DNA of 64,000 bases from Bacteriovoracia bacterium (GCA_050246755.1 JBFWVL010000001.1:96001-160000), one strand, 5' to 3'; shown: positions 1,551 to 62,514, counted from the first letter of the stretch. The notes: generated by a model from the letters alone, not told the origin. Translations and numbers: made by a program.

Positions 1551-1554
1551 GAAA

Positions 1555-3066: not shown

Positions 3067-3152
3067 ATCCAAGCCATCGGGAAAATGACCGGGAATACTT
3101 AGCGAGATTAGCTAATGTTAGCCGATGACAGGTTATGCCTACACGGCGGCGT

Positions 3153-7042: not shown

Positions 7043-7043
7043 C

Positions 7044-7433: not shown

Positions 7434-7512
7434 TTGCTCTCCCTTATTTGGTGCAGCTTACCCTAAAAATCCGTTTGGCACGGAGGCCCGAAGCCAGGAA
7501 ATACCCGCGATT

Positions 7513-14236: not shown

Positions 14237-14970
14237 AAATCCTCCGCGCCTATACCATTGCGATCCTGATTTTCCTCTGGATGCCGCTCTCGGTCCTGCT
14301 CTTCAAGGGTATGTCATTGGTGGCCTTCGAGAAGCTCCTCAATAGCTCCGACGTGCTTTCCTCGTTCCGCAATTCGCTTTTGCTGGCCGCCGCCACCGCG
14401 ATCCTCACCACCGGCCTCGGCCTCACCACCGCCTTCGCCTTGCCCCTCCTCTCCACACGCCTGCGCGGTTGGGTGATTGGCTCCCTCTTGCTTCCGCTCG
14501 TACTGCCCGAGATTGCCTTCGGGATAGCCTACCTCGTATGGTTCCGCCTCCTCGGCATTCCGCTCGGCTGGACCACCCTCCTCTCCGCCCATTTCGCTTT
14601 CTGCTTCTGCTACGTGGTGCTCGTGCTGAAATCCAGCGTGGCCCAGCTCGACCCATCCCTCAGCGATGCGGCGCGCGATCTCGGAGCCAATAGCCTGATG
14701 GTTTTTCGTCACGCGATTCTTCCCCAGCTCTGGCCGGGACTCATCGCCGGCGCGATGATGGCTTTCAGCCTCTCGCTCGATGATTTCCTCATCACCTTCT
14801 TCGTAAAGGGCATCGATCAGCTCACGCTGCCGATTAAGCTCTACTCCATGATGCGGCTTCGCCTAGGAGTGGAAGTGTATGCGCTCTCGGTCATACTCTT
14901 TGGAATTTCGGTGATTTCTGTAGTAATCACTCAGCTATGGTTCATCCAATCGCAAAAGCAAAAACGTTAG
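14233..14970 (+). CDS. potC: Spermidine/putrescine ABC transporter permease
   Basis: PLVLPEI, DAARDLGA, FSLSLDDFLITFF, TLPIKLYSMMR. Confidence 0.88.
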   Translation: MKILRAYTIAILIFLWMPLSVLLFKGMSLVAFEKLLNSSDVLSSFRNSLLLAAATAILTTGLGLTTAFALPLLSTRLRGWVIGSLLLPLVLPEIAFGIAYLVWFRLLGIPLGWTTLLSAHFAFCFCYVVLVLKSSVAQLDPSLSDAARDLGANSLMVFRHAILPQLWPGLIAGAMMAFSLSLDDFLITFFVKGIDQLTLPIKLYSMMRLRLGVEVYALSVILFGISVISVVITQLWFIQSQKQKR

Positions 14971-16013: not shown

Positions 16014-16074
16014 TTTTAGTAAGTTAGGCTATTAAGCTAAATCAGAACGCGAAAAGTACGCCGCGGATTTTCCC

Positions 16075-17418: not shown

Positions 17419-17426
17419 AAAATCTC

Positions 17427-17452
17427 AAAAAAAACGCCCGTTTTCACGGGCG
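17427..17452 (-). terminator. Rho-independent terminator after ino1
   Basis: Minus strand CGCCCGT-gaaa-ACGGGCG followed by T8. Confidence 0.7.
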
Positions 17453-17460
17453 CCCTTTTC

Positions 17461-46527: not shown

Positions 46528-46528
46528 C

Positions 46529-47197
46529 TTACCCTCTCCAGAAAATATAAATGGGGTTCAAGGCAAATCCGATCGCTACGGCCCAGCCGAATACTTGGCT
46601 CACGCAAAGCAAGGCCTTCTCTTTTCCGTTCGGCACCAGCCCCAGCGTCTGAATCGAGCTCCACAGGGCATGGCTTAAGTGCAGGCCCAGCACGAACAAG
46701 CAAACCAGGTACCAAGCCACGTAGCCGCCGCTGGCGAAGATTTCCGTCATCAAGCGATGCAGATCGCGGATTTCTTTTCCGTCGTGCTGGAAGGGATACT
46801 CCACCCCGAAGCGGAATTTAATTAGGTGCAAAATAATGAATACGAAAATCAGCAGCCCCGAGTACGCCATCGTCTTCGAACCGAGCGAAGCCTGGCCCTT
46901 CGTGCCCATTCCGGGATTCACCGCGTACCCCACCGGGCGCGCCTTTCTATTTTCTAGGGAAACCAAAATTCCCAAGATGGCGTGGGCCAATAAAGAAACC
47001 GCGAGCGCTACTTCCAGGGGATAATACAGGGCCTTATTCGCGGTGATATTATGCCCGTATGCGTTATACGCATCGGCGCTCACTAGATAGAGAAGGTTGC
47101 CGGCCATATGGGTGAAGACGAAGCCGCACCAAAATAAACCAGCAATGCCCATCAGCTGCTTCTTGCCGATGGATGAACAAAGATAGGCGCCCTTCAT
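46529..47197 (-). CDS. sdhC: Succinate dehydrogenase cytochrome b subunit (single 5-TM anchor)
   Basis: SSIGKK..M...G; four conserved His in TM helices; first gene of the sdhCAB operon. Confidence 0.9.
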
Positions 47198-47335
47198 ATA
47201 TTCCCCTTATGCGGTTGTGTGCGCTTTCTAAGATAGCATAAAGCCGGTTCATTTTGGACGGGTTCGCAAGATTGACGCGACTGGGCAACCCCAAAATATC
47301 CTGCACAGTGTGGATTTGTTTGGGATCATAAACCC

Positions 47336-47800
47336 ATGAAGGGTGAAAAGTTTTTCGACGTGAAAATGATCGCGCTGCTCATCGGCCTCGTTTTTCTGCT
47401 CGCCGCCATGGCCGCCCTCGGCGCGCCCTCCCTCGACAAACGCCTCTACTATACCGGCCTCGAAGCCCGCGAGTTCTTCTCCCGCCTTTCCGCGCAGGAT
47501 GCCGCCAACTACCGCCTCAACGAAATCATCGATCTCGGCTTCATCCTTCTCTATACCTTCACACTCGTGCTCACCTTCGTGCGCCTTTATCCCCGCTCCA
47601 AGCTCCTCTACTGGATCGCCTTCGCGCCGGCGGTTTTCGATCTCATCGAAACCGGTTCGATCCTTCACGTACTGAATTTCGGTGAGACATTTCCCGTGCT
47701 GAGCTGGCTGGGCGCGGCTACTTTTTTAAAGTGGGCCAGCACGGTGGTCGCGCTGGGACTGATTTTACGAGGTGGGTTGAGGAGGGTTAGTTTGGGGTGA
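47336..47800 (+). CDS. Hypothetical membrane protein
   Basis: Four hydrophobic segments; D.GFIL.Y and FDLIE motifs. Confidence 0.7.
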   Translation: MKGEKFFDVKMIALLIGLVFLLAAMAALGAPSLDKRLYYTGLEAREFFSRLSAQDAANYRLNEIIDLGFILLYTFTLVLTFVRLYPRSKLLYWIAFAPAVFDLIETGSILHVLNFGETFPVLSWLGAATFLKWASTVVALGLILRGGLRRVSLG

Positions 47801-47993
47801 GGGTTAGCTGGGATATTACCTGGCGCACGCAAACACATTGGCAAAGAGAGGTTGCGCGGCATTCTTCGTTTTGGTGCTATTGTCTCATGCGGTAGATCCT
47901 TCGGGTTTAGTGAGCGTAGCCAATAGCCAGCTAGACCAATTGAGGTAACGCACTTTTATTCACCAAATATTTTTATGCTTTCACCAATTTTAG

Positions 47994-48530
47994 CTAGAGC
48001 CCTACCACGGTTAACGGCCGATTGCCCACGCGCGTGATAAACTCCATCTTCTCTGTTTCAATTTGCCACTCTTTATCTACAAGGCGCAGTTGAAGTTCAT
48101 ATCCTGCCGTAGCACCATCCGAAGCCGTTTTTCGCAATCTGACAAAAAGTAGATCTCTTTTCTGCCAACAGAGAGACGAGATAGTTAAACGATTGTGCTT
48201 ATTTTTATCCCCAAAACCGCTCCTCAAAGATTGTCCCTTAAAAAGGGCAAATTCCTTATCTTTATAGAACCCTCTCAATGCTAAAAGAGTCGCCTCCATC
48301 TCTTCAGAAGAACTGTTATCGCTCAATAAAAATTCTTTCACCCCAGAATCTTTTGTTTTTTCTACAAAAAATTTATATGAGGCAATTTTTGCTTCTGCCG
48401 TCAAGCGCGCCTGTTCTTTCGAATCGCTATAAACGGAAGACTGGCATTTACGAGATGCGCCCTCTGCATCAAATCTCAAAAATATTGATGCCATCAAAAC
48501 TACGAAGCATACATTTAATCGCATTCTCAT
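47994..48530 (-). CDS. Secreted putative immunity protein ('LCWQ' family)
   Basis: Signal peptide; shares RL...AK, LCWQ and C-terminal strand pattern with 52466..52966. Confidence 0.6.
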   Translation of the reverse strand: MRMRLNVCFVVLMASIFLRFDAEGASRKCQSSVYSDSKEQARLTAEAKIASYKFFVEKTKDSGVKEFLLSDNSSSEEMEATLLALRGFYKDKEFALFKGQSLRSGFGDKNKHNRLTISSLCWQKRDLLFVRLRKTASDGATAGYELQLRLVDKEWQIETEKMEFITRVGNRPLTVVGL

Positions 48531-48551
48531 CTGGCACGAATAATTAGGGCG

Positions 48552-48992
48552 TTAATTCTTCGTTTGTTCGTTTTTCTTTGGAACTAAAGCCTTTGCGACT
48601 AGCTTATTCTTTTCCCGAAGCTCCACAATGAATGCATTGGGAGTTGCCAAAAAATTAACTCTGGCCGAATCGAACATGTGAGGTAAAGATCGGCTATTCT
48701 CATTATTCTGCTTAGACCGCTTAGCAAAAGACATATTTCCAGTTTGCTTCAAAAGCAGGAAGGCCGATTCAATTTCTTTTCCATTTTTATCTTTTAATAC
48801 TGCGCGCAGGTCTGTTGCAGCCGCGGACCTATGGTCTTCATCTGTTCTTTCGCGAGAATATGAAACTCTAGATAAATTTAAAGAAAATTTACCGTGGTCC
48901 TTGATCACAAGTCCCAGGATTGCGTCTTGCCCAGGCTCAATACCATGACTATTGAATGGAAAAAATAATAGACAAAAAATAATGAACTTCAT
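48552..48992 (-). CDS. Secreted hypothetical protein (putative immunity/accessory)
   Basis: Signal peptide; ATG overlaps the stop of the upstream remnant (ATGA). Confidence 0.6.
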   Translation of the reverse strand: MKFIIFCLLFFPFNSHGIEPGQDAILGLVIKDHGKFSLNLSRVSYSRERTDEDHRSAAATDLRAVLKDKNGKEIESAFLLLKQTGNMSFAKRSKQNNENSRSLPHMFDSARVNFLATPNAFIVELREKNKLVAKALVPKKNEQTKN

Positions 48993-49180
48993 TCTACCTC
49001 AAAGTTTAAATCTGCTGCGCCAGCCAATTTCAATCTAGACCATTCTCTAACTTTGATTGTTGACCAGCCGGAAGTTTTAGCTCCACTCCTAGAGCTTAGT
49101 TCCAGCCGTTTGACGTTCCTGAGAAAACCGGCCCACGCCAAATCCGTAAAAAGCCGCTTATACGCCCCTACCGACCAAAT
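48989..49180 (-). pseudogene. C-terminal remnant of an effector homologue
   Basis: Hand translation IWSVGAYKRLFTDL...KLAGAADLNFEVE* resembles the 53017 C-terminus (RWQVNVSLVPKR...VGRSAEINFSVP*); no convincing start codon/RBS. Confidence 0.5.
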
Positions 49181-49974
49181 TATTCTTTATCAAAAATCAA
49201 AATACCGAAGGCCCTGATCGTAGTAATGTCTTTTTTTACTCCAGAGAACGTGGCCTCATACTTTGTGCGCTTTAAAATCTCTCCAAGCTTAAAATCCGCC
49301 TGATTCTTCTTATTGTCATACAAATAGAGGTCGTTGTCGGCCAAGCCACTTTCAAGAAAAAGCGGCCGTGAACCTCCCGCTGACTGAGCTAGCTGGGCAC
49401 TACATTTAATTGTATCCGAGACGCCGCCCGCCCTAGAAACGATAACGCAATCTGGGGCCCGATAGAGCGCCGTAATCAGCTTGTTTCCCAAGCCGTCCAA
49501 TGCCTTTCTCGAAAAGAAAGCCGGAAAAGGCAGGATATATGAAACCTTCCGGCGCTGAACATACGCTTGAACCTCACCTTCTCCGCCATCGCCGGGGATA
49601 TTTTCAAGAGACTCGAACTCCAGCGGAAAAAGCATTATGAGCAAATAAAACACACTAAATGTAATAAAAAAAATCGGAAGAGCACTTCCCCGCACTTCGC
49701 GGAAAGCAGAAAACCTATAACGCCGCAGGCAAATCTGAAAAAATTTTACAAAGAAAAAAGCAAAGCTCGCCAGAACGCAGAGAAAAGAAATACCTTTAAA
49801 AAGGCTCGAAATAGGTACGGCAACCCAAAAATAATTGAAAAATACGAGAACTCCAAAAAATAAAATAGCCGGAATTTCAAAAACAAATAGAACCCAAAAA
49901 ATAGCGGTACTTAACAATAGAAAACTGACGTAATCCGAGCTTGGGTCTTTTAAAAATTTTCGAATTCTATTCAT
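49180..49974 (-). CDS. Membrane protein (N-terminal TMs + soluble C-terminal domain), putative immunity
   Basis: Phe-rich TM segments in the first ~115 aa; ATG overlaps the upstream remnant stop. Confidence 0.6.
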   Translation of the reverse strand: MNRIRKFLKDPSSDYVSFLLLSTAIFWVLFVFEIPAILFFGVLVFFNYFWVAVPISSLFKGISFLCVLASFAFFFVKFFQICLRRYRFSAFREVRGSALPIFFITFSVFYLLIMLFPLEFESLENIPGDGGEGEVQAYVQRRKVSYILPFPAFFSRKALDGLGNKLITALYRAPDCVIVSRAGGVSDTIKCSAQLAQSAGGSRPLFLESGLADNDLYLYDNKKNQADFKLGEILKRTKYEATFSGVKKDITTIRAFGILIFDKE

Positions 49975-50087
49975 ACCGCAATTATCTCTACGGCCCGACC
50001 ACGCATGCCGGAGGCATTTATCTTTTTAAGACTCAGTCGTCTTGTCACCAACTTAAAAGACAAATATTTAGAATCCACAAAATTCCC
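49971..50087 (-). pseudogene. Possible C-terminal remnant of an effector homologue
   Basis: GNFVDSKYLSFKLVTRRLSLKKINASGMRGRAVEIIAV*; ending resembles GRSAEINFSVP*; ATGA overlap with the next gene. Confidence 0.4.
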
Positions 50088-50098
50088 TTATCGACCAT

Positions 50099-50929
50099 CT
50101 ATTCGGCCCCGTACACTTCGATTTCACGCGTCCTGCCTTGCCCGAACCATTGAATTTTTCGAACGAGCTTTAATCCTAGCCGCGACGGCTGGTTTTTACT
50201 TAAAATTTCAACCATTGCCCTATTCGGAAAGGGGAGAACTCCCGGAAGAATCTCCCTAGAATAGACCACTGCGTCCACATGAAAATCTTTCAGGGCTAAC
50301 CGTGGCTCATTCTGACGATAAAAAAACAAAAAATATGAGGGCAGAAGAAGTAATGCTTCAAATGGTCGTATAAGAAACGCCAAAAAATAAAATACCGTAT
50401 AGCCCCACGCCTTCCCGGAGCAAAGGCAAGCTAGGGCAGATAGAGCAAAGGCGCAGAATGGCAGCTCAGACATGAATGCGCGGCTCATCCCCACGAAAAA
50501 TGGATACGTGCAGACGGTGGCTGCGCCCAGAGCGGCCGCGGCTTGGCTCAAACCCAAACCTCTTAAGACGGCCCTGCTACTGAACGTCGCTAACGCAAGT
50601 AAGGAGATGCCGAATAAAATAACCGCCGTTTCGATTGTTCCCGTTAGACAAAGAAACAAAGACCCTAGTATTGGGTGGTATGTTGAATATTGAATTTTTG
50701 AAGTAAGTAATTCATACAGCGCGGCGCCCAGTGGTCGAGTGGAAAATGTCTCCCTCCACCGGACGGCGTAGTTCCAATGGAGAAAATCATCGGATTGAAA
50801 GTCGAATGGGTTAAAATAAAAATATAGGCCAAGAAGGACACAAGGAAGAACGAGAAATATATTAGAGACCATGCACCTAAAAGAAGACTTCAGTAACGCA
50901 AATCCATTTGGGGGAAAATATGACTCCAT
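50099..50929 (-). pseudogene. Probably truncated GT-C (ArnT/PMT-like) membrane glycosyltransferase
   Basis: DD motif after TM1, RPLG, SRAFMSELPF, LIRP; only 276 aa, short for the family. Confidence 0.45.
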
Positions 50930-51059
50930 TTATCTCTTTATCCTTAAGAAAGAAAAATAAAAGACTAGGCCTACTGAAAATTCGGAATTATAAAAAATGA
51001 CAAAGAGTTCGCCCAACTAAGAACCTCCATGGCGACTCTTTTAAATTAAGAGGTCTTTA

Positions 51060-51200
51060 TTAATCTGCTATTCCTTGAGCGACTGCCTCTGAAATTAAAA
51101 TTTCTCCCTTCGCCTCACTTAATACAAACCCATAAATATACCCCTCATCACGATATTTTTTGGCCCCCAAGAATACTATAATTTTCTCGCCCACAGCCTG
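51060..51200 (-). pseudogene. 3' remnant paralogous to 52466..52966
   Basis: KKYRDEGYIYGFVLSEAKGEILISEAVAQGIAD* versus KKYRSGGGYFYRFVLSEVKGELLVSEAVAQGIGD*. Confidence 0.8.
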
Positions 51201-51299
51201 GTCGGAAAATCGAGAGAAGGTCAAAACCGAGTACCTTACAGCCGCCTAGCGTACAAATATTCTATCCCTGTAAAGAATACAGGCCCATCCTTCAGGAGG

Positions 51300-52034
51300 C
51301 TATTTTGCAGATTTCCCGAAGCAAGTTATGGGGGCTAAATCATTCCCATCAGGATCCAATTTAAAATCACAAGTCTGCGTTAGAAATAGCGAGTTGGTCG
51401 TAACGGCGCGGACATCCCATTTTCCGCCATTCCACTTTGGGAAAACCTCCCACATAAGATGCTTGGGATCGAAACCCCAAAGCATCGCCGCAAATCTCGA
51501 ATCAGAATAATACTTTGAAACCGCTAGTCTTGCTATCGCCTGCCTCTCGAGAGGTCTCATGCCTATTAAAGCCTGCGGCTCGCCAACATCTTCCCCATAA
51601 AACTCGTAGGACATGGGGCGCTTAACAATAAATAGCATGACGCAAAATAGCGCTATCGAGCCTAACAAAAAATATACATTTTTAATTCCACGGAAACTCG
51701 AGTCTCCATCGCGTGCAAAAAATAAAATAATAAATGCAGCACTCGCGGGAAGTGCAAATCCAGGAATCAAAAAAAGACTTGAGCTGGGCGAACCGTTAAA
51801 GTTTGAAATTAATTCAAATGAAAATATTAACAATGCATAAAACACCAATAAGATTCCAAAGAATGACGTTAAGGTATTCTTACTTGAGGAAAGTGAAATT
51901 TCTCTGCCGCTAAACGAAGATCGACTGAGTTTCTTCGATAAAAAGAGGGCAGCTATCACAAAAATGCTCGTGACCAATGAAAATACTAAACAGTATAGAA
52001 GTAGCCGAAACTCCTGTGATAAAAATGCCCTCAT
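51300..52034 (-). CDS. 4-TM membrane protein with soluble C-terminal domain, putative immunity
   Basis: Four hydrophobic helices, then a domain with two Cys; ATGA overlap with the 52031..52228 remnant. Confidence 0.6.
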   Translation of the reverse strand: MRAFLSQEFRLLLYCLVFSLVTSIFVIAALFLSKKLSRSSFSGREISLSSSKNTLTSFFGILLVFYALLIFSFELISNFNGSPSSSLFLIPGFALPASAAFIILFFARDGDSSFRGIKNVYFLLGSIALFCVMLFIVKRPMSYEFYGEDVGEPQALIGMRPLERQAIARLAVSKYYSDSRFAAMLWGFDPKHLMWEVFPKWNGGKWDVRAVTTNSLFLTQTCDFKLDPDGNDLAPITCFGKSAK

Positions 52035-52228
52035 GGTATTATGGTAATCAACCTTTCTACACTTGCCCCGAACGACTTCCGCTCTTCTTGGATTTTCATC
52101 TCAAGTAAGTAAATTCTGGATTCCAAAACCAAGAGCCTCGCTTGTATGCGACTAATTTTATCTGAGTTAGTTTTTGTGACATTGGCGGGAGAAACAAGAC
52201 CAGCTTGCCGAGTCAGAAAATTTTTCAA
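52031..52228 (-). pseudogene. C-terminal remnant of an effector homologue
   Basis: SDKISRIQARLLVLESRI...EERKSFGASVERLITIIP* aligns with PDRRLEIESQILILSRRI...ELEKEVGRSAEINFSVP*; an in-frame stop lies just upstream. Confidence 0.7.
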
Positions 52229-52249
52229 AAAAATTCACCGATTTTTAAA

Positions 52250-52369
52250 TTTATTCCCAACATCTATTTAGATGAAGCACTTTGCCGTGCGATTATTGCA
52301 GAAGATAACTCTTATGCTGAAATCCTCGTAAAACAGGGGGCAACGTCACCATGTGTCTCTAACCCCTAA
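52250..52369 (+). pseudogene. Ankyrin-repeat-like gene fragment
   Basis: LDEALCRAIIAEDNSYAEILVKQGA fits the ankyrin pattern (AL..A......A..Lh..GA). Confidence 0.4.
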
Positions 52370-52465
52370 GAGGCAAAATCCAAAAGCTATAATTTTCCCG
52401 AAAACTCTGCGCCCACTGACGACGGCAAAGCTTCAGCCAAATGAACTACTACTCTATGATATTCG

Positions 52466-52966
52466 CTAATCCCCGATCCCCTGAGCAACTGCTTCTGACA
52501 CCAAAAGCTCTCCCTTTACCTCACTCAACACAAATCGATAAAAATAGCCGCCGCCACTACGATACTTCTTCGATCCACCCACCAATATGTTTTTCTCAGC
52601 CTGCCAACATAGAAAATCAATCCCAATTACAATGACGCCCTTACCAGCATCAGGAATTGACGAATATCCACCTGCATAAAAAGTCTGGCCTTTAAACTTC
52701 TTAGATAACCTAGAAACGTAGAGATGCTCATCTGCATTTTTCTCTAGAGTACGATCAACAAGACCTATTTTTTTTATTTCAGTGGGCAAATTTTCAGCCA
52801 ACCAAAAAAAAACTTTCTCTTTCGCCTGGCTTTCAAGCCGAAATCTAACCGACGGCTTAACCTTTAAATCATTGACCTTTAAACACCCAGCATGGCCAGT
52901 AACACTGCATAAAAACAAAAGAAAAATAGCAAAATATTTTTTATACCAATTAACCATAAATGACAT
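52466..52966 (-). CDS. Secreted putative cognate immunity protein ('LCWQ' family)
   Basis: GAGG RBS, signal peptide; lies directly downstream of the metalloprotease gene. Confidence 0.65.
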   Translation of the reverse strand: MSFMVNWYKKYFAIFLLFLCSVTGHAGCLKVNDLKVKPSVRFRLESQAKEKVFFWLAENLPTEIKKIGLVDRTLEKNADEHLYVSRLSKKFKGQTFYAGGYSSIPDAGKGVIVIGIDFLCWQAEKNILVGGSKKYRSGGGYFYRFVLSEVKGELLVSEAVAQGIGD

Positions 52967-53016
52967 ATTACCCTCAATGACAACATCACGGTAATAAATT
53001 AAGTATGGATCACCAA

Positions 53017-56000
53017 CTATGGAACGGAAAAATTAATTTCTGCGCTTCGCCCTACTTCTTTTTCCAGCTCAGCCCCCTGAGACCTCGCGTTAGCAATTCG
53101 CCTAGATAAAATTAGAATCTGGCTCTCTATTTCCAACCGCCTATCAGGATCATTTTCATCTCTTAATCTCGACCGAAGATCAAATATATCTTGCCGCCAA
53201 GAAGCAATCGCAGACCTTAGTGCAAACCAAGGACGCTTAGGCACAAGACTCACATTCACCTGCCATCTATGACTTCCCGACACAAGCCTGAATGACTCTG
53301 CCTCTAGATATCGCTCATGATGCTTAGGTTCGACCCTAGTCCCGTCATAAAATACATTATAAACAAACATATATTCGGGATTTTCGGGAGACTTGACGAA
53401 ATCCGCCCTCAGCCTATTTCGTCCTCCTACAATATTACCTCCATCAGTATCGAGAACCACGAAAGGGCTCGGATCCTCCAATACTGGCGGCTCTAAAGCA
53501 CTTAGCCTAACAAAGGCACCAGCAATTTGTTTTCCAATTTCATGCTTACCAGCATCCAAATAGGAGTCAGCCAGAAATGAATCTACAAGCAGGCTCGACG
53601 CAAGTGGTGCCAATTGTTTACTTAGTATCTGTTTAGCTAATGAAATTTTCCGCGCCAAAACAGCAGCCCGCAATCTAGATATCTCCGCTGACAACTTTGC
53701 TCGTCCAGAGATTGCATTAACAATAAAAGCTCGATCTGGAATGTATTTAACCTCTTCATCTATTAAATCAGCTGGTATAACCACCGAGCCTAATTTAACT
53801 TTTCCATTTAAGTTATCTCGAAAAATATCTACGAATACGCCATTCGCAGTGACAGGAACAGTAAATTCCAACTCAGGCGAACCCCCAGGGAGGTTGATAT
53901 CCTCCTTTGCCGCAAATCTCGAAGATGAAATTAATTCATTGGAAATAGTCTTTAACTCAACGAGGTATTCCCCGTCGGAGTTGCTAGGAACTTCGCGATT
54001 TGAATATAAAACATACGTGCTAAACCTATTAAATACGTTTTGACTAATATTTCCTGAAATCAGAATTTGGCTCCCAGGAAAGTTCATGGTCACTTTTTGC
54101 GGACCTGGTATATTTCTTCTAAAGACCTGCACATAATCATTATAAGAAAACCAAAAAGGATTGGGGTCTATATATGGCTGAGCTGGGTCAATGCTATATT
54201 CATTCGACTGCCCTTGCATCATTACATCAATTTGGGCAAGCCTTTTTCCGCGACCTATCTCAATTGGTATAGAAAAATCATAGTTAGAATACCCCTCAAA
54301 TCTAGCTTGGGGATTAAGTGGATCAATAATTCGAGGAGCATGCCATCCCTCTTCGCCGGAGGGTGGCGAGCAGCCGGTTCTACTATCGAATCTAATACAA
54401 AAAGTGTGCCCCAGCTCATGCGCCAAACTTTTAATCAAACCACTCTGCACATGAAAAGCAGGCTCATCAAAGTTGGCCAGTCCAACCGAGTCATGAAGTT
54501 CGTGCGGCGAAGGAAACTTCTGATGAAAGTAGTTATTGGAAACAATCCCAACAAGATGAGTGATCGTCGTATCATTATAAAATTCAGTGGAATTTTCTTT
54601 ATCTACTAGCGCTTTAAGAATATTTCGATCATTTTGAATATCTAACACATCTCCCGTACCCCATACTTTTCCAATTAAAAAATCTCTAGTGAAATCTGTG
54701 TCCGCAGCCGGATAAAGTTGCTTCAAATATGGAAATCCGCCAAAAATGGAAGTCTCATAGGAAAATTCATCTGGCACCTTTGGCTCCGGACCCTTCTCAA
54801 AGCCAGTTCTAACAAAGCCGAGATGAAGGGGCTTTGTTTTTCTAACTCTGACAATAATTTTTCTTTCGGAAATAATTCCGTTTTCTGAATTCCTTAAAAC
54901 GACGTGCATTGTCTTGTTAAGACCGAGAAATGCGCTAGTGGCTGGAACAGGATTTATCTCAAATGTGACGGTTGAACTCCCGCTTTCATCTGTGATTACT
55001 GGATTTGGATGTAAAGTGATCCCATTCCATTCCATGGTCGATTTTGCAATATCGACAGCGGCATTTATTCCCGAAACCACTACATCAGCATTCTTTCCTG
55101 CCACCAGATCTACCTCTTGACCATTACAGAAAGATGTATACTGGCCGGAGCAAAGATTTGGATTTTCAACCACTTGAAACACCGAATACTCACCGGGATA
55201 AGGCTTCACATAATAGGCCGAGTAACCAGAATGGTTTGGATTTGAAGAATGGAGTCGAAATGCGGCTTCACCTTTATTATTGAAAGCACCGGCGTAGAAG
55301 GCAATGCTTAGAAAAGCTTCTGTATTTTCTGATATTGCTTTTGGATTAGCCAACATTATCGGATCTCTACCGAGCGCAAAATTGTAGAGTGCGGGTCCGT
55401 TGAAAGCACTAGCAGAAGTCGCTACTTCGTCGTTATCGTTGATTGAAAAATCATGAAGATCACACGGGAAATCGGGGTTGAGATAGCCAAATCCGGTAAA
55501 AGGAGAACTTAGGCTATCTACGTCTTCCCTCGCGTATGTTCTAGCAAGTTCTTCCACAAATCTATTTCCGGCTGAATACCTGGAAAGCAAAAGAAACTGC
55601 TGTCTTGTTGCTCCAATCATCCTAGTGCCAGAAAAAACAACAGATCCCTTGGAATTAATATCAGCACCTCCAAGGCAAATATTATCAAAATGAATTGAAC
55701 CCAAATTGGTAGGAATGGCCTCAAGAAAATTCGCCGAATTCCTAACTACTATCTCGTCAGTATTTCCCGTTCTTCTCTTATACATGAGCCAGCCATTGTC
55801 TTTCACAATAGGTTCGCCGACTATAGTCGCTGGGCGTGCGCCTTGATCCACAAACTCTAGACCGTTACCAGACGAAAAATAGATAGCGGTGGTTCGATAG
55901 CCTGCATCACTAGGATGTAAATCAACTAAAAAAGCCTGCGCAGAACCGGAGGGAGACACACTATGACCGCGAATTGCTTGAACTCTCAAATTATTTCCAG

Positions 56001-56439
56001 CAGCACCAGCGTCAACCAAGGTCTCATAATAGAGCTGTGCACTAGGCGAACTACCATTGTTTGTGAACGAGTAGACACCCCTTCCCCATCCATCTGGTGC
56101 GGTCGGAATTCCTACGGTAGGTGTAGTTATTCCATAAAATGTTCCATTGTCATCAAATGAAAGGCTCGGCAAAAAACTATTACTAAATCCAATTATCGGA
56201 ACGGGCGTCGTAAGAGGAAATTCACTCCCAATATAAAGGAGTTCATTGGCAGAATTTACGGCAACTTGACCACCATTATTTAAAGCAGGCGTTCCGTCTC
56301 TATTCTGAAATGCCGAAATCTCTTTTCCATTATATTCTAACCGAGTTCCGGGAAGCACGAGTTCAGTTTTATAGGCGTAGAATGGAGCTGCTGTCGCGCA
56401 TAGAGGAAGAAGCGCTACAAGAAAGAATACTCCTCTCAT
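53017..56439 (-). CDS. Large secreted protein: NxxGxxAF-type propeller repeats + HExxH zinc metalloprotease + C-terminal helical-hairpin/beta-sandwich module
   Basis: Start 56439 (ATGA overlap). LNNGGQVA, INSKGSVVF, INDNDEVA, FNNKGEAAF repeats; DLVAGK; SLAHELGHTF and DVMM (Met-turn-like). Confidence 0.75.
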   Translation of the reverse strand: MRGVFFLVALLPLCATAAPFYAYKTELVLPGTRLEYNGKEISAFQNRDGTPALNNGGQVAVNSANELLYIGSEFPLTTPVPIIGFSNSFLPSLSFDDNGTFYGITTPTVGIPTAPDGWGRGVYSFTNNGSSPSAQLYYETLVDAGAAGNNLRVQAIRGHSVSPSGSAQAFLVDLHPSDAGYRTTAIYFSSGNGLEFVDQGARPATIVGEPIVKDNGWLMYKRRTGNTDEIVVRNSANFLEAIPTNLGSIHFDNICLGGADINSKGSVVFSGTRMIGATRQQFLLLSRYSAGNRFVEELARTYAREDVDSLSSPFTGFGYLNPDFPCDLHDFSINDNDEVATSASAFNGPALYNFALGRDPIMLANPKAISENTEAFLSIAFYAGAFNNKGEAAFRLHSSNPNHSGYSAYYVKPYPGEYSVFQVVENPNLCSGQYTSFCNGQEVDLVAGKNADVVVSGINAAVDIAKSTMEWNGITLHPNPVITDESGSSTVTFEINPVPATSAFLGLNKTMHVVLRNSENGIISERKIIVRVRKTKPLHLGFVRTGFEKGPEPKVPDEFSYETSIFGGFPYLKQLYPAADTDFTRDFLIGKVWGTGDVLDIQNDRNILKALVDKENSTEFYNDTTITHLVGIVSNNYFHQKFPSPHELHDSVGLANFDEPAFHVQSGLIKSLAHELGHTFCIRFDSRTGCSPPSGEEGWHAPRIIDPLNPQARFEGYSNYDFSIPIEIGRGKRLAQIDVMMQGQSNEYSIDPAQPYIDPNPFWFSYNDYVQVFRRNIPGPQKVTMNFPGSQILISGNISQNVFNRFSTYVLYSNREVPSNSDGEYLVELKTISNELISSSRFAAKEDINLPGGSPELEFTVPVTANGVFVDIFRDNLNGKVKLGSVVIPADLIDEEVKYIPDRAFIVNAISGRAKLSAEISRLRAAVLARKISLAKQILSKQLAPLASSLLVDSFLADSYLDAGKHEIGKQIAGAFVRLSALEPPVLEDPSPFVVLDTDGGNIVGGRNRLRADFVKSPENPEYMFVYNVFYDGTRVEPKHHERYLEAESFRLVSGSHRWQVNVSLVPKRPWFALRSAIASWRQDIFDLRSRLRDENDPDRRLEIESQILILSRRIANARSQGAELEKEVGRSAEINFSVP

Positions 56440-59315
56440 TTTCCCCTCCCAGCCGCACCGCAAGCATCAGCGAAATCAAGCGTACATGCCCGTTGCCACA
56501 ATCTCGTCTTCGTGAAATCGTCGCCGTCTTCGGAATACATATTTCCTAGCTCGTAACAAGCACCGCCGTCGCCGGGAGGCGCCCAGCAGGCGTTGGTCAG
56601 CAGCTGCCTCTTAGCTTCACGCTCGCCGTCATACGGAAGATCGAGCTTCTTTTTTGCCAGCGGTGGCGCTCCGCTAACATTCACCGTCACGAAGGTGAAT
56701 ACGAGGTTGCCATCGTTATCCACCACGGCGAGGTTAACTCCGTAAGTACCCGGTGTTTCGTACACGTGAGAAGCCACGGCCGTCGTCGTCTCCTCCGATC
56801 CATCGCCCCAGTTCCAGCTGTAGCTGGCAATGGTTCCATCATAGTCATAAGATTCCAAGCCGTTCACATTGAGCGTGAAGGGAGCAACGCCCGAGAGCGC
56901 GCCATTACGAATGATCGCTCTAGGGGCATGGCCCGCATTCACGTTGAATACTTCCATAAAAGCCCTCTGCGGCGGCGTGAAGCCAACACCCGAGGTCACC
57001 CCCATGCTCACAAAATAATTGCGCGCGAGCGGATAGGTATAGTTCACGAACTGCCCGTTCGCGATGCCTTGCCCGTCGGGATTTAGGAAATCCGAGAAGC
57101 GCCAGTTCCAGTTAATGATGGTCCCGCCGACATTGGGATTCACGGCGTAGCTTCCGTTGAAGCTCAAGGGTGTGCCAAGGAGGACTTCGCGAGGCGGCCC
57201 GACCACAAACTGATTCACGGGCGCCATGCTGCCGCTGATTCCCGGCTGCACAAGGATAATAGCCTCTCCTTCAGCTCCATAAGCATCTCTCGTGCGGAGA
57301 CGGACATTGTAGTTTCCGGAAGCATTGTAAGCGTGAGTGACTACTGGGTCGGTAGTCACGGTCTCGCCAAACGCATCGCCGAAATTCCAGCGGTACTGCA
57401 CGATTCCGTCCGAGTCGCTCGCCTCCGACGCGTCGAACGTTACGGTGCGGGGAAAAGATCCGAGCAGGCCACTCACCCGAAATTTTGCGGTAGGCATATC
57501 GGTATCCGTAATCACCACCGTGATATTGGCCGACGTGGTGGCGCCGAGGTTATCGGTGGCCGTGAAAGTGGCGTTATAAGTGCCGGTAGCTGGGTAGTTG
57601 TGCAGAATAAAGGCAGCGGCGGTATCAAACGTGCGTTCACGGGTTCCGTCGCCAAAATCCCACCACATGGATTCGATCGTTCCGTCGGGGTCGGTTACGC
57701 CGCCGACCGCCAATGCAAGAGCTAGCCTTACCTGGAAAGGTGCGCCAGGCGTTTTCTGGTTAACGAAGGGAGCAGCGCCCAGCACGGGAGGAAAGTTCGC
57801 CACTACCGACACGGGAATGGAAACAACGGTGCTAAGTGGAGGGGTGCCGTTATCAACAATGGTTACTTCGAGAGTGTCGGTACCTTCGTTCTCACCAGCC
57901 TGGAAACTAACAAGGCCAGCGGAAGAAACGGAGGCGGTTCCGTATGCGCTTTGCTTCGTCACGAAGAAAGAGCGCACCTGCCAGAAATCCGCGTCGGCCG
58001 AAGTGATTTGGCTGGTTCTCGTCGCATTGATCCCGGCGGTGATCGAAGGAGCGGATCCCGTGGGCGCGCGGTTAGCGGGGGCGCTCACTTCAACGACGGC
58101 AAGCGAAATATTGCCGGTCATGAAGGGAGTGGTGGTTTCCGCGATACGCATTTCCATCACGTAGTAGCCAGGAACGTCCGGCGTGAAACTGTAATTTACG
58201 TCCGTGCTCACGGGATCGGTATTGATCGCGAGCGCGGAACCGGTTGGTTTCGAGATCAAGCGCCACTCGAAGGCAAGGGGCTGGTCATTCACGTCGTGGG
58301 AATTAACCGCGGTTACTTGCGCCCCTTCTCCGAGAGCGATCGGGCTGGCCACGGCTTCGGCAATTCCGATCGGCGCGGTGGGTGGAATATAGGGCTCGGG
58401 AACGATTACGGTGTCGTTCGTGGCAAAAAACGCATTTTTACGAATTGCATTCTTCACGACTCCGCCCGAGGTAAAGCGAATCTCCACGTCTTTGCTGCCT
58501 TCGGTGGAAAACACGGGAGTATTGAGCGTGATGCTCGTGGAGCCAGAGCTCGTAACGGCCGTCGTAATGCCGCCAAGTTTTACTTCGGGGCTAGAACCAA
58601 AATTGGCGCCAGAGATCGTGATCGTGGTACCACCCGCGGCGGCCACGAGGTGGGGCGTTACGTCGGAAATTCTCGGGAAATCCGTTCCGGTCGTTTGCTC
58701 CACCACGTTGAACGAAATGCTTTCTTCGCCCACGGGGGATTTTAGGGAGGCGAGAGCGGCCACGAGCTGGTTCTTGAGCGAAACCTTCTCGTCGCGCTGG
58801 GCCGTAAGCTGGGCGATCTCGGTGGGGTCGGTCGCGGCCGCGATGGCGGCGTTTAGAGAAACAATATCGGCCTCGAGCGAAACGATCGCGTCGCGGATTT
58901 GCACGGCCTGGGCTTTGTCCTGGATAAACATCGAGGCCAGGAAGGTATGCGATTTGATTTCGGTTAAGGCGCCGGCATCATAGATCCACATCTCTTGGGA
59001 AGGATGCTCGAGAGCAACGGTGGCGCCATCGAATTTACCTTCGAGCAGCACTTCACTATCCGTAAATCCCGTATTGGGAATGAGGTAGAGGCTCACGTGA
59101 TCGCCCTGGGCGGGAGTATTCGAAGGAGACACGAATATTCGCACCAGGGGATCACTCAGCTTCTTGATCTTGAGAGTCCGGTCTCTCTTGGCTTTCTCCA
59201 TCTTGGCGATGAGAGTTTTTACCTTAATATTCGTTACCGAACCCTTTGCCGCAAAGGCGGCATCGGCGAAGTTTGCAACGCAGAGAGAGAGCACTAATAA
59301 AATGATTTTTTTCAT
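56436..59315 (-). CDS. Secreted PKD/IPT-TIG/Ig-repeat adhesin-like protein
   Basis: Signal peptide, hairpin module, IPT (GGTTITISGANFG), WDFGDG/WNFGD/WRFSD/WNWGDG PKD repeats, C-terminal Cys-paired Sel1/Hcp-like repeat. Confidence 0.85.
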   Translation of the reverse strand: MKKIILLVLSLCVANFADAAFAAKGSVTNIKVKTLIAKMEKAKRDRTLKIKKLSDPLVRIFVSPSNTPAQGDHVSLYLIPNTGFTDSEVLLEGKFDGATVALEHPSQEMWIYDAGALTEIKSHTFLASMFIQDKAQAVQIRDAIVSLEADIVSLNAAIAAATDPTEIAQLTAQRDEKVSLKNQLVAALASLKSPVGEESISFNVVEQTTGTDFPRISDVTPHLVAAAGGTTITISGANFGSSPEVKLGGITTAVTSSGSTSITLNTPVFSTEGSKDVEIRFTSGGVVKNAIRKNAFFATNDTVIVPEPYIPPTAPIGIAEAVASPIALGEGAQVTAVNSHDVNDQPLAFEWRLISKPTGSALAINTDPVSTDVNYSFTPDVPGYYVMEMRIAETTTPFMTGNISLAVVEVSAPANRAPTGSAPSITAGINATRTSQITSADADFWQVRSFFVTKQSAYGTASVSSAGLVSFQAGENEGTDTLEVTIVDNGTPPLSTVVSIPVSVVANFPPVLGAAPFVNQKTPGAPFQVRLALALAVGGVTDPDGTIESMWWDFGDGTRERTFDTAAAFILHNYPATGTYNATFTATDNLGATTSANITVVITDTDMPTAKFRVSGLLGSFPRTVTFDASEASDSDGIVQYRWNFGDAFGETVTTDPVVTHAYNASGNYNVRLRTRDAYGAEGEAIILVQPGISGSMAPVNQFVVGPPREVLLGTPLSFNGSYAVNPNVGGTIINWNWRFSDFLNPDGQGIANGQFVNYTYPLARNYFVSMGVTSGVGFTPPQRAFMEVFNVNAGHAPRAIIRNGALSGVAPFTLNVNGLESYDYDGTIASYSWNWGDGSEETTTAVASHVYETPGTYGVNLAVVDNDGNLVFTFVTVNVSGAPPLAKKKLDLPYDGEREAKRQLLTNACWAPPGDGGACYELGNMYSEDGDDFTKTRLWQRACTLDFADACGAAGRGK

Positions 59316-59327
59316 GTCCGGGGTTCC

Positions 59328-59837
59328 TTAGTTCAAATTGGTAAAAGAAGAGAAATTGTAGGTCTCGCGGCCGATTCTATTTTTGAGGCCTTCTAGCTCC
59401 GCCTGGAGCCGCGTTTGGAGTTGGAGATTTTTATTGAGCTCGGCCTCAAGGGCGGCGAGGTCATCTGGGTCAGAGGTTTCGGCGATCTCGGCGCGGAGGC
59501 TTGCAATCGTTTGCTCTGTTACTTTTAGAGATTCAGAGAGGCGATCGGTTTGCCGGGCGTCGGCCAAGGAGATCAGAAAAGAAATCGCGTGGGCGCCGTT
59601 TCCTGGAACTTTAAATACCCAGAGGTCTTTGGCGGGATGCTCGAGGGTCGCAGGGTAGCCATCAAAGTTGGCGTCGAGCACCACGTAGGACTTTTCAAAA
59701 TTCGTGTTGGCGCGGATGAAGAGATTCACCTGCCCGTTCGCGGCCCGATTTTCCGAAATACTAAGAAAAGAACTGGTTTTTGGGCCGGCCAAGGCCGCAA
59801 AAGGCAAAAAGAGGCAAAGCAGTGCAATAAATTTCAT
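59328..59837 (-). CDS. Small secreted protein consisting only of the hairpin/beta-sandwich module
   Basis: GAGG RBS, signal peptide; NTNF...FDG...LEHP...W and SDPDD hairpin shared with the 56436..59315 N-terminus. Confidence 0.8.
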   Translation of the reverse strand: MKFIALLCLFLPFAALAGPKTSSFLSISENRAANGQVNLFIRANTNFEKSYVVLDANFDGYPATLEHPAKDLWVFKVPGNGAHAISFLISLADARQTDRLSESLKVTEQTIASLRAEIAETSDPDDLAALEAELNKNLQLQTRLQAELEGLKNRIGRETYNFSSFTNLN

Positions 59838-59846
59838 ATTTTCCTC

Positions 59847-60839
59847 TTACTGGGCCGTGAGGGTGATGGATACGGGCTGGCCCACGGGGGTGCGAACCTC
59901 GGCGAGGTGCGCGCGCGTGGAATTGAGCAAAGCTTGATTGCGGTCGATCTCGGCCTGGATGGCGGCGATCTCGGTAGGGTTCGTGGTATTGCCAAGAGCG
60001 GTGGTCAGGCGAGTGATCTCGGCCACGTAGAAATTAATGGCGTCGTTGAGGGATTTGGCCTCTTTCTTGTTTTGTAGAAACAAGCTGGCCACGAACTCTT
60101 GGTCGCCCGCTACGAGGGGAGAAGTGGTCCCGTAGCTCTGGCTATCGGTGATGCGCGTGAGGGGGAGATCGGATCCGGCAAAAGAGGCCGAAACGTAGAA
60201 TTCGAAATTAGAATTCGTGGGTCCGTTTCTCGTGGTGAGAAGCACGGTGGCCTTTGCGCCAACGGCGTAGCTCGGCTGGTCGGCGCTCAGAATAAGATTA
60301 TAGGTGGGAGTTGGTACGGGGTGCGGCTGGTAGCCCGGAAGGATTTCGATTCCGTTCACGAGGGCGTCCCCCACTACGCTCGCGAAATTGAGGTTGATCA
60401 CGCCGGATGGATTGGCGTTTACGGTAAACTCCCTCACGGTGGCGATCCCGATGCCCCCGGTCGCGCCCACGATATCGAAGTTGGTTAAAACCTGGGAGCC
60501 ATTGATACCGATGTTGAAAATACGGGAGCCGCCCGTGGTGTGATAGAGCTCCGCGAAATGAAGGCGAACGAGGTGGGCTGCGCCGGCCTCGAGGCCAGGG
60601 ATCGCGTAGGAGAAGTTTCCGTAGCGGCAGGTTTGGTAAACGGCGAGCGGCGCGGGGTTCGTTACTTGGCTTGCGTTGATCGGGATGCCGGTGGTGTAAG
60701 GGGTTCCGCCGCTAAAGTACTGGTCGGCGGTATAGTTTCCATTCGCCACCACCGTGCCGGCACCGATTGCGATCGGAGAGTCGGCGTGAGCAAAAGTGCT
60801 GCAGAAGAAAAGAGCGAGCGCCAAGCAGGAACGGAACAT
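59847..60839 (-). CDS. Secreted malectin-domain protein with C-terminal hairpin/beta-sandwich module
   Basis: GGAGG RBS; VYQTCRYG, VRLHFAELY, RIFNIGING, NFDIV, ALVNGIEI are malectin motifs. Confidence 0.85.
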   Translation of the reverse strand: MFRSCLALALFFCSTFAHADSPIAIGAGTVVANGNYTADQYFSGGTPYTTGIPINASQVTNPAPLAVYQTCRYGNFSYAIPGLEAGAAHLVRLHFAELYHTTGGSRIFNIGINGSQVLTNFDIVGATGGIGIATVREFTVNANPSGVINLNFASVVGDALVNGIEILPGYQPHPVPTPTYNLILSADQPSYAVGAKATVLLTTRNGPTNSNFEFYVSASFAGSDLPLTRITDSQSYGTTSPLVAGDQEFVASLFLQNKKEAKSLNDAINFYVAEITRLTTALGNTTNPTEIAAIQAEIDRNQALLNSTRAHLAEVRTPVGQPVSITLTAQ

Positions 60840-61235
60840 GAGCAACCCTCCATAGGTAGCAAAAATCACCAACCACCATGTTGGCGCACTCGACTTTCAG
60901 GCGAGATTTAAATTCGAAGGAGATAGGAACACGAAATAAACTAATCCGGCAATATCTTTTTTTTAGGCTAAAAGAGATTTAATATTCGTCCGAACTGGCT
61001 GCATTGCAACTAATGCGGCGAGAAATATACCGAAAAAAATTTACTTTTTTTCCCGTGAGAAATGATGATTTCTCGCTAGGCAGAGTGGCTGGTGTTTTTT
61101 CTAAAGAAACGAAGAAAAGACCGCACGCATTAAACTCGATGCGGCAGAATTCTTCCTACACGGTGAGAGGCGCGCGATAGCCGGAAAATAGAAAGGGCGG
61201 AGCAACTAGTGCCCCGCCCCCGCTAAGTACAATCT

Positions 61236-62174
61236 CTAATTTTTCTGCAGATACTCTTCGAGCTTGTCGAACGATCCGGTCCAGCCCTGGGTCATTCCCG
61301 CTTTGGCTTGGTGGAAGGTTTCGCGCTCGGCCGCAGAGGCCTCGCCGTAGACTTCCCACTGGATCGTCACGCGGGTTTTGTTCTCGGATTCCGCCGTGAA
61401 GCAAACCGTAGTGAGCATGGTCTCCGGCCAAGTGGGCGCCGCGGGATGGCGGGAGACATTTCCTTCTTTGTCACAGAAAATCTGCGTATAAACGAGCTTG
61501 CTGGGCTTCGTGATTTCCTTGTAGTGGATCTTCCCGTACATCGTGATCTGGCCGTTGCTCATAGAATAGAAATTCGTCCCTCCGGCCTTGATATCGGCCT
61601 CGATGCTTTTCATGGTGAAACCAGTAGGCGCCAGCCACTGGGAGAAATGCTTGGGATTGGTCCACATCTCGAACATTTTCTCGATGGGCGCCTCGAAGCT
61701 GCGGTTGATCACGAAGCGGTCCACGGGAGAGAGGAACTCGGCGAGTCGGTCCCAGGTGGAATCGCCTCCAGCCTTCTTGATGAATTTCTTGGTTTCCTTG
61801 GCGGCTTCTTCGGTGGGCAGCGCCATGGTCATTTCCATCTTGGTCTTGCCGGCTTTTTCGGAGAACTCCACCGTCACCCGGAATAGCGGGGCCTGTTCAT
61901 CGTTGCCGCCGTGGTCGTAGACCATGCGGGAATATTTTTCCACCTCGAGGTATTTGGTTTTGTTCACGTAGTCGGTGCCGTCGGGCCCGTGCATGGTGTA
62001 GTGCCAGGTGCCGCCGGTGCGGATATCGGAATTGTGCGTGGTGATGGTGAAACCACGGGGCCCCCACCAATGCGCTTTTTGCTTGGGATCGGTCCACGCG
62101 TCCCAGACCATCTTCACGGGGGCATCGTAGACGCGGCTGATATAGAGTTCGTTGGGTTTATTTTTTACGGGCAT
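61236..62174 (-). CDS. Tandem SRPBCC (AHSA1) domain protein
   Basis: Two repeats: RVYDAP..VWDAWTDP...WWGP and RSFEAP..MFEMWTNP...W; GWTGSFDKL. Confidence 0.92.
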   Translation of the reverse strand: MPVKNKPNELYISRVYDAPVKMVWDAWTDPKQKAHWWGPRGFTITTHNSDIRTGGTWHYTMHGPDGTDYVNKTKYLEVEKYSRMVYDHGGNDEQAPLFRVTVEFSEKAGKTKMEMTMALPTEEAAKETKKFIKKAGGDSTWDRLAEFLSPVDRFVINRSFEAPIEKMFEMWTNPKHFSQWLAPTGFTMKSIEADIKAGGTNFYSMSNGQITMYGKIHYKEITKPSKLVYTQIFCDKEGNVSRHPAAPTWPETMLTTVCFTAESENKTRVTIQWEVYGEASAAERETFHQAKAGMTQGWTGSFDKLEEYLQKN

Positions 62175-62514
62175 GCTTCTTTTCCTTCTTATTGATCGTT
62201 TTCAAATAGGCATCCAGCCGATCGAAACTTTCTTCCCAGAATACCCGGTAGTGCTCCAGCCATTCCGATACTTCCTTGAAAGATTCTCCATTCAATTTGC
62301 AGGGGCGCCACTGCGCTTCGCGCCCCTTCGAGATCAGGCCCGCGCGCTCGAGCACCTTGAGGTGCTTGGTGATGGCCGGGGCGCTCATGGTTTTGAGGAA
62401 GGGCTTCGACAGCTCCGAGACGCTCGCCTCCCCTTTTGAAAGGCGCACCAAGATGGCCCGGCGAGTGGGATCGCCGAGGGCCGAGAACGCGAGGCTGAGT
62501 TTATCTTGGTTCAT
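62158..62514 (-). CDS. ArsR/SmtB-family transcriptional regulator
   Basis: FSALGDPTRRAIL, ITKHLKVLERAGLI, AQWRPC. Confidence 0.93.
   Translation of the reverse strand: MNQDKLSLAFSALGDPTRRAILVRLSKGEASVSELSKPFLKTMSAPAITKHLKVLERAGLISKGREAQWRPCKLNGESFKEVSEWLEHYRVFWEESFDRLDAYLKTINKKEKKHARKK

Follow-up and report, generated by a model that had tools for sequence, protein, structure and literature searches.

Four consecutive genes on the minus strand of a 64,000-nucleotide (nt) stretch of Bacteriovoracia bacterium DNA (GCA_050246755.1 JBFWVL010000001.1:96001-160000; hereafter the window) encode secreted proteins that all carry one module of about 150 amino acids (aa). They are a malectin protein (A), a module-only protein (B), a stalk protein (C) and a putative zinc peptidase (D). 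By analogy, cohesin-dockerin systems, the MAT fibres of Bdellovibrio and the loci of polymorphic toxins seem to resemble this operon in logic only; none of them shares its domain.

In cohesin-dockerin systems, as in the window, Sec-exported proteins are encoded together and carry two complementary module types: a conserved scaffold rich in immunoglobulin-like (Ig) domains bears one, and heads that vary, catalytic or binding, bear the second. However, the two types of the window are paralogues of a single hairpin-inserted fold, its scaffold has one module and no array, and binding between the types is something that we infer. Pfam gave no Cohesin or Dockerin match in any protein set scanned (window, paralogous, long, short and cluster proteins). 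The maltosyltransferase GlgE is a structural comparator: its N-terminal beta-sandwich is interrupted by a helical insert, and Foldseek ranks it first for the whole module (4u2z_A, 5cgm_B). The helical insert of GlgE forms its dimer interface. GlgE is, however, a cytoplasmic enzyme without sequence similarity to the module, and the structural match is weak (E 3.5e-3, TMq 0.39, root-mean-square deviation, rmsd, 12).

Rhs and contact-dependent inhibition (CDI) loci share with the operon a variable enzymatic part set on a conserved one, orphan ends followed by small open reading frames (ORFs), atypical composition and strain differences; orphan fragments with downstream small ORFs occur at 52034-52234 and twice more in a genus relative (locus L029). 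Unlike in those loci, the conserved, recombining piece here is a module at the C-terminus, ahead of which lies the variable part; the proteins leave by way of Sec signal peptides, and Pfam finds no YD/RHS repeats in the window operon. LXG effectors of type VII secretion have small helical partners encoded beside a larger effector, which led the first-pass annotation to a loose comparison. The small partner beside a larger protein stands, whereas the Sec signal peptides, the Gram-negative phylum and the beta-sandwich core set the operon apart, and none of the four window proteins has an LXG or WXG100 match in Pfam; the analogy is loose at best. A tripartite alpha-pore-forming toxin (Hbl/Nhe/Ahl), a helical bundle with a hydrophobic head or tongue, was also considered; the charged helices with a single a/d seam, the beta-sandwich core and the lack of a Pfam match in the window proteins speak against it.

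The MAT fibres of Bdellovibrio bacteriovorus are homotrimeric beta-helix fibres, described as 21 per genome in the passages available (PMC10769870). [quoted passage not shown] The module profile gives 1-6 clustered matches per Bdellovibrio-family genome, against 21 MATs. We know of few modular surface systems in Bdellovibrionota besides MAT fibres.

The module and its operon

The four genes lie head to tail in the order A, B, C, D:

59847..60872, minus strand: gene A, malectin plus module, 341 aa from TTG 60872
59328..59837, minus strand: gene B, a signal peptide and a single type I module, nothing more, 169 aa
56436..59315, minus strand: gene C, stalk protein, 959 aa
53017..56439 (ATG) or 56463 (TTG), minus strand: gene D, putative zinc peptidase plus module, 1140 or 1148 aa

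Gaps of 9 nt (A-B) and 12 nt (B-C) separate the first three, and the TGA stop of C shares an ATGA with the ATG of D, just 5' of which lies GGGAGGGG, a Shine-Dalgarno-like sequence. Because of this overlap and the upstream GGGAGGGG, D most likely starts at ATG 56439 (1140 aa) rather than at TTG 56463 (1148 aa); it is deposited in a public collection as a protein of 1140 aa, the length given by ATG 56439. For A, ATG 60839 is a likelier start than TTG 60872. All four N-termini look like Sec signal peptides on inspection, and a crude rule agrees; over all loci it accepts 53 of the 58 complete module ORFs. The tight coupling and Sec-type N-termini described by the first-pass annotation are found at the same coordinates, and every sequence motif that it quoted was located in the four proteins.

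It had further claimed that one ~150-aa pattern recurs in all four products, at the C-terminus of A and of D, at the N-terminus of C and as the entire mature B, and both the recurrence and the positions hold. Apart from B, the modules are placed as follows:

59850-60320, minus strand: type II module of A, C-terminal, aa ~185-341
58698-59162, minus strand: type I module of C, N-terminal, aa ~52-206
53020-53481, minus strand: type II module of D, C-terminal, aa ~995-1148

BLASTP aligned B with C (33% over 153 aa, E 3e-22), A with C (41% over 73 aa, E 2e-13) and B with D (28% over 88 aa, E 5e-4), and gave no significant pairwise similarity for A-D and C-D. The seven modules of the genome, from the window and a paralogous locus, align collinearly without internal gaps. 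A profile of these seven scores D at 2e-56, D's own row being part of it, and the D module matches that of D', its counterpart at the paralogous locus, at 25% over 121 aa (E 3e-6). Despite the weak pairwise BLASTP similarity, D is therefore assigned to the family, because of the profile alignment and the match to D'.

The AlphaFold2 model of mature B (predicted local distance difference test, pLDDT, 87.3; predicted template modelling score, pTM, 0.72) has seven strands, two helices (77-103 and 107-133) that meet at a conserved turn, [TS][DN]P, and one more strand that closes the fold. The module is accordingly modelled as an Ig-like beta-sandwich with an antiparallel helical hairpin of ~55 residues inserted ahead of the last strand. 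The sandwich lies closest to Ig-like folds and those of carbohydrate-binding modules (5no8_A, Z 11.5, rmsd 1.6 over 80 aa; 2c4x_A, Z 9.9). A wide VIA search with a single module returned generic helical hairpins only (Z ~10, residues 76-135), and B has no usable feature match in the ESM Atlas, where its structural neighbours reach a TM of at most 0.48 (DUF4349, for example, at 0.40). The hairpin helices are charged, and each bears a single conserved a/d hydrophobic seam.

By sequence, the module is a domain that lacks any named family, as the first reading had supposed. Pfam-A 2025 has no match over it in the four window proteins, three paralogues, 46 long, 47 short or 32 cluster proteins, and NCBIfam 20.0 has no family for it in the four window proteins or in 32 tandem proteins. 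A profile search of the PDB with the module found coiled-coil constructs over the hairpin only and no related chain. No description of the module or its operons was found in the literature searched on Bdellovibrio and on such folds, supplements excluded.

When 1.84 billion sequences were searched with the seven-module profile, 404 representative proteins passed a threshold of E<=1e-3, and 272 of them scored at E<=1e-10. The module occurs as a stand-alone protein of ~165-195 aa, in tandem (~335-365 aa), in tandem followed by an RCC1 propeller, N-terminally on TIG/PKD proteins of 750-1150 aa, and C-terminally on ~340-aa malectin proteins or on 800-1300-aa proteins without Pfam domains. Names were obtained for 7 of 30 representatives looked up: four belong to Bdellovibrio or Bdellovibrionales (as 'RCC1 domain-containing protein' or 'hypothetical protein'), and three read 'hypothetical protein' only. 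At E<=1e-5 the module is present in 17 of 401 sampled Bdellovibrionota genomes, from two classes of the phylum; by family, the carriers are 4 of 7 genomes (f1), 2 of 58 (f4), 1 of 2 (f9), 8 of 53 (f21, which includes the genus Bdellovibrio) and 1 of 100 (f22).

Module genes cluster: 71 of the 77 matches in the 17 genomes have another match less than 10 kb away. Twenty places fetched from relatives or from the same genome were examined together with the window and the paralogous locus L006, and in 19 of these 22 the module genes sit side by side and point the same way, 2-5 of them in a row. The order recurring in the window's own family is a protein of about 350-390 aa, one of about 170-180 aa, a TIG/PKD protein and a variable fourth gene, as at L011 (388-177-980-1255 aa) and L015 (376-168-754-339 aa); loci L014 and L024 end at contig edges, and their gene order is partial. 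The operon association expected from the window is seen as tight clusters in two classes of the phylum and, at L011 and L015, in the same order.

Two module types on stalks and heads

A tree of 65 modules (quick IQ-TREE, LG+G4) contains a 22-row clade with SH-aLRT support of 99. Its members, here called type I, are B, C, C' (the paralogue of C), all TIG/PKD stalks and some of the small proteins. In the other half (type II) are A and D with their paralogues A' and D', together with most modules that bear heads. The two subtypes proposed at first, B with C and A with D, correspond to these halves, and the two types appear from the sequences to be ancient paralogues of one domain. They occur together: 18 of 19 places with more than one module contain both types, against a mean of 14.1 (sd 1.8) in label shuffles, of which 381 of 20000 reach 18, a statistic that kinship inflates. 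Where a place has exactly two modules, the pair is I+II (4 of 4), and all six tandem proteins in the tree unite opposite halves.

The carriers of the types differ. Type I modules are found on TIG/PKD stalks in all lineages studied, and most long members have the module-TIG-PKD design. C consists of a signal peptide, the type I module, a TIG domain (aa 214-282; 36 bits against a cut-off of 20.9), an Ig/PKD array with four PKD domains (PKD_4, 165.9 bits against 27) and a tail with four cysteines:

56439-56633, minus strand: C-terminal 4-Cys tail of C (aa ~895-959), ~45 aa after a Lys/Glu/Arg-rich stretch

Of 29 C-type representatives listed, 24 have this tail; the Bdellovibrio-genus stalks lack it. 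A resemblance to Sel1-like repeats was set aside, because Pfam returned no match for the tail at E<=5.

Type II modules have varied partners: malectin, RCC1 or PQQ-like propellers, LamG with PKD, PEGA, CarboxypepD_reg, PAP2, a C39 peptidase, a D-type domain, or none. In A the partner is Malectin (PF11721, aa 42-153), which scores 70.5 bits against a cut-off of 23 and 59.7 bits in A'. B and D have no Pfam domain above the cut-off. D runs from a signal peptide through an N-terminal beta-rich region, a region with the motif HELGH and a helical linker to its C-terminal type II module:

54406-54420, minus strand: HELGH motif of D, putative zinc-peptidase region

Three of the family matches are homologous to the cargo of D (aa 315-990) at 27-31% identity, each ending in a module, and HELxHxxC[IV]R[FY]D is invariant in these and D, with the H, E, H and later D fixed. 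The motif of D reads HELGHTFCIRFD; compared with HExxHxxGxxH/D, the Gly is replaced and the Asp lies one position further. Reprolysin_5 is below threshold on D (13 bits against a cut-off of 27, E 0.12), a language-model search led to M66/Reprolysin_3 (M66/M12) clusters at scores of 0.92-0.94, which serve as a lead only, and no sequence homologue of the cargo was found in the PDB. D is a putative zinc peptidase and a candidate for the metzincin clan (M12/M66-like). Its first description as a protease is not confirmed as such: the HExxH motif is invariant in four proteins, the family model stays sub-threshold, and the M66/M12 assignment is a lead.

The same genome has a paralogous locus with a different enzyme:

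L006 (G000:C1:822000-838000; about 823.5-831.7 kb), 1537-9664, minus strand: three genes, A', C' and D'

A' (344 aa, malectin plus module) is 39% identical to A over its full length and C' (1051 aa, module plus TIG/PKD) is 33-38% identical to C over its full length; there is no B-like gene. D' (1299 aa, Peptidase_C39_2) and D have just the C-terminal module in common. The exchangeable enzymatic cargo postulated for the fourth gene is borne out here, by a C39-like peptidase at the paralogous locus and, in a genus relative, by a tandem-module protein in its place.

Cassette signs at the head end

The GC content of the operon is 0.54-0.58 through C, and about 100 nt around the C/D junction suffice for it to drop to 0.41-0.48; D as a whole has 0.43, and A-C 0.52-0.58. 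D belongs to a low-GC block whose right edge is the C/D ATGA junction and whose left edge, near 47.8-48.0 kb, adjoins the sdhCAB genes. No tRNA gene was found near the block. Its features are:

47.9-56.44 kb: low-GC block of ~8.5 kb, GC 0.40-0.44 against ~0.56 around it, with D and six more minus-strand ORFs
52466-52966, minus strand: ORF of 166 aa, secreted or lipoprotein-like
52034..52234, minus strand: orphan type II module fragment, 3' end only, with the second helix and the last strand
51300-52034, minus strand: ORF of 244 aa, membrane protein
50099-50929, minus strand: ORF
49180-49974, minus strand: ORF, membrane protein
48552-48992, minus strand: ORF of 146 aa
47994-48530, minus strand: ORF, secreted

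The six ORFs (47994..52966) have no Pfam or NCBIfam match above the cut-offs. The orphan matches the type II hidden Markov model at positions 116-154 (E 2.2e-5), has an in-frame stop just upstream, and ends in a TGA that overlaps, as ATGA, the ATG of the 244-aa membrane ORF. From its sequence it looks like a displaced older cassette. Similar remnants, comprising the hairpin end and last strand only, are found in the genus relative:

L029 (G215:C14), 1495-1701, minus strand: orphan module end, 68 aa
L029 (G215:C14), 2771-2947, minus strand: orphan module end, 58 aa

They are 44% identical to the D module, small secreted ORFs follow each, and an ORF 3' of an orphan module there matches the 146-aa ORF of the block (28% over 137 aa). 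The small ORFs after D and those after D' show no likeness. The GC step at the C/D junction and the orphan module end downstream add to the case for an exchangeable cargo.

The C/D junction is genuine and no assembly artefact, because a contig of the probable source run covers 46288-60994 unbroken and a contig from a second sample crosses the junction (55954-56724) with no difference. A search of 400 other Bdellovibrionota genomes with the cargo of D as query did not find it. In a wastewater metagenome, a relative at ~96-98% identity follows the window as far as 47807, where the block has its left edge and the relative's contigs diverge, and matches again at 51244-52173, stopping inside the orphan. 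It also matches A and B at ~96% (59256-61007), with contigs that diverge at the start of C, and has nothing at >=90% over D or most of C, although its contigs may miss sequence. These comparisons hint at strain-level exchange of the head end of the operon.

Proposed docking of the two types and competing explanations

The reading that we prefer, at a probability of about 0.45, is heterotypic docking of type I with type II modules combined with cassette exchange of heads. Type I would be carried by the conserved Sec-exported stalk (C) and by small proteins such as B, and type II by the variable heads, here the lectin A and the putative zinc peptidase D. After export the two types would bind each other, with the logic of cohesin and dockerin and another fold, and the stalk would therefore be decorated with a glycan-binding head and an enzyme. 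Such a product could lie outside the cell and bind or attack the surfaces of prey or polymers. Recombination in the conserved sequence of the module, or next to it, would exchange the 3' part of the operon, which encodes the heads, cassette by cassette and leave orphan module 3' ends behind.

Natural fusions are consistent with docking. The tandem II-I' protein P0011 (354 aa), modelled by AlphaFold2 with 32 homologues, gave a pLDDT of 92.3 and a pTM of 0.86, with all five models at or above 91.5, and consists of two complete modules across an 18-residue low-confidence linker. Because the pTM is 0.86 for two domains despite the floppy linker, the modules are predicted to be held in a single fixed arrangement, as one rigid body. 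In the comparison with the GlgE-like arrangement, the tandem model superposes loosely on 3zss_A (VIA; Z 9.1, rmsd 8.2), and no chain superposed on both hairpins at low rmsd (best 9t56_A, 96 aa, 3.4 A). Complex prediction of the window modules with the D module as partner, run without controls, gave an ipSAE of 0.00 twice and counts neither way. A hetero-oligomer of the four products, as first proposed, may only be inferred, from the co-occurrence of the types and from the rigidly modelled fusions.

Several points weigh against docking. The lone a/d seam of each helix suits a free-standing hairpin as well as a bundle. In P0011 the modules could pack via their sandwiches instead of their hairpins. 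The deepest split of the tree is poorly supported (82, drawn open), so that firm support is confined to the 22-row clade; the statistic on co-occurrence is a modest one, raised further by kinship. Clusters have from 2 to 7 modules, which speaks against a fixed stoichiometry. The operon has no outer-membrane component, and its gene set does not account for export past the periplasm. Finally, the genome has a third locus some 60 kb ahead of the window, where both modules are of type II and type I is missing:

L007 (G000:C1:28000-42000), 5025-5555 and 8096-9052, minus strand: two type II modules

The L007 modules (176 aa and 318 aa, non-adjacent) may be silent or orphan copies, given their low GC (0.44 and 0.38) and missing signal peptides; an ORF between them is 33% identical (E 3e-22) to an ORF beside the orphan modules of the genus relative.

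Docking could also be extended to a lineage-specific, two-type platform in which a TIG/PKD stalk receives interchangeable lectin, propeller, peptidase or Rhs-linked toxin heads through module-level recombination and serves to recognise and attack prey, much as a cellulosome and a polymorphic toxin system combined; this wider version is a tentative one, and we hold it to be rather doubtful. The docking idea is directly testable in vitro, since the domain is compact and can be expressed, its model is a confident one, and it comes both as two partner types and in natural fusions. Target specificities should be readable from the conserved stalk and the catalogue of natural heads, and the mechanism of head exchange is visible in breakpoints within the module gene. 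Specific pairing would provide an orthogonal protein-docking pair for engineering; without it, the module would still be a new domain family, confined to one phylum as far as named members show.

The best surviving rival, which we consider unlikely, takes the module as a common anchor by which each protein attaches independently to a component of the envelope or prey surface (a glycan, peptidoglycan or an outer-membrane protein), like S-layer homology (SLH) or choline-binding domains, with no hetero-oligomer. The resemblance of the sandwich to Ig-like and carbohydrate-binding accessory domains (5no8_A, 2c4x_A) would suit an anchor, as would a module that stands at either terminus, in tandem or alone, in numbers that vary from cluster to cluster. 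However, independent anchoring leaves unexplained why the two ancient types occur together in 18 of 19 places and why the fusions are always of opposite type, it gives the module-only, 169-aa B no role, and the rigid two-module model suggests contact between modules.

The module has also to be weighed as a structural spacer or folding unit, the operons then being products of tandem duplication and of domains shuffled between secreted proteins, each acting by itself. Ig-like domains are frequent spacers in secreted proteins, and paralogous duplication is evident in the three loci of one genome. Yet synteny and the two-type make-up are retained across two classes at 15-30% module identity, stand-alone module proteins are conserved in the operons, and the module 3' end is intact at cassette junctions, and a mere spacer is in our view distinctly improbable.

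Rhs genes near some clusters bear on a last explanation. Nine of the 22 places have an Rhs-family ORF in the flanking sequence retrieved: six Bdellovibrio-genus loci, G153, G169 (a 102-aa fragment) and G337. Five are Pfam-confirmed; the four from the Bdellovibrio genus have RHS_repeat and TEN_YD-shell, and that of G153 has RHS_repeat with DUF6531 and no TEN_YD-shell match. Sec-signal Rhs/YD-shell proteins of 1150-1470 aa adjoin the module clusters at L008, L014 and L017-L022, in Bdellovibrio-genus genomes and G153. A further protein, from G248, follows a tandem-module gene and has a weak N-terminal module match (aa 40-103) ahead of NHL and RHS repeats:

L016 (G248), 13466-18001, plus strand: teneurin-like protein with CarboxypepD_reg, TEN_NHL and RHS repeats, at least 1512 aa, the stretch ending within it

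Five genomes searched have 2-5 Rhs genes each, one or two of them adjoining a module cluster, and in the window genome RHS matches lie on another contig only, with none near its three module loci. For strain HD100, the passages available of a paper on Bd0109 give five RHS elements and mention no module-like neighbours (PMC3818213). Because only one or two Rhs genes of each genome searched adjoin a cluster and none is near the loci of the window genome, the Rhs link is a lead on a secreted-weapon theme and no property of the window operon.

That the clusters are accessory to a Sec-dependent polymorphic toxin system, with modules as adaptors for toxins (Rhs/YD-shell in Bdellovibrio, peptidases here) and small downstream ORFs as immunity proteins, is the least likely explanation, since the nine Rhs-flanked places, the G248 protein, the orphan fragments with their small ORFs and the low-GC cassette block are outweighed by the lack of an Rhs gene beside the three loci of the window genome, by the adjoining of only one or two of the 2-5 Rhs genes to a cluster in each of the five genomes, by the origin of six of the nine places in one genus (probably one event) and by the variable part being C-terminal in classical systems and N-terminal to the conserved module here.

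Upstream of the operon, a terminator-like hairpin closes the preceding AHSA1-like gene and leaves a spacer of 363 nt before A. The transcription unit therefore probably starts within this spacer, and the operon promoter probably lies in the following region:

60873..61221, minus strand: upstream intergenic region with the terminator-like hairpin at 61193-61221 (12-bp stem, 8 GC pairs, T-rich tail)

Further 5', at 61236-62514 on the minus strand, lie two genes, one for an ArsR-type regulator and one for a protein with two AHSA1/SRPBCC domains, which are set off by the strong terminator-like hairpin and are probably unrelated to the operon.

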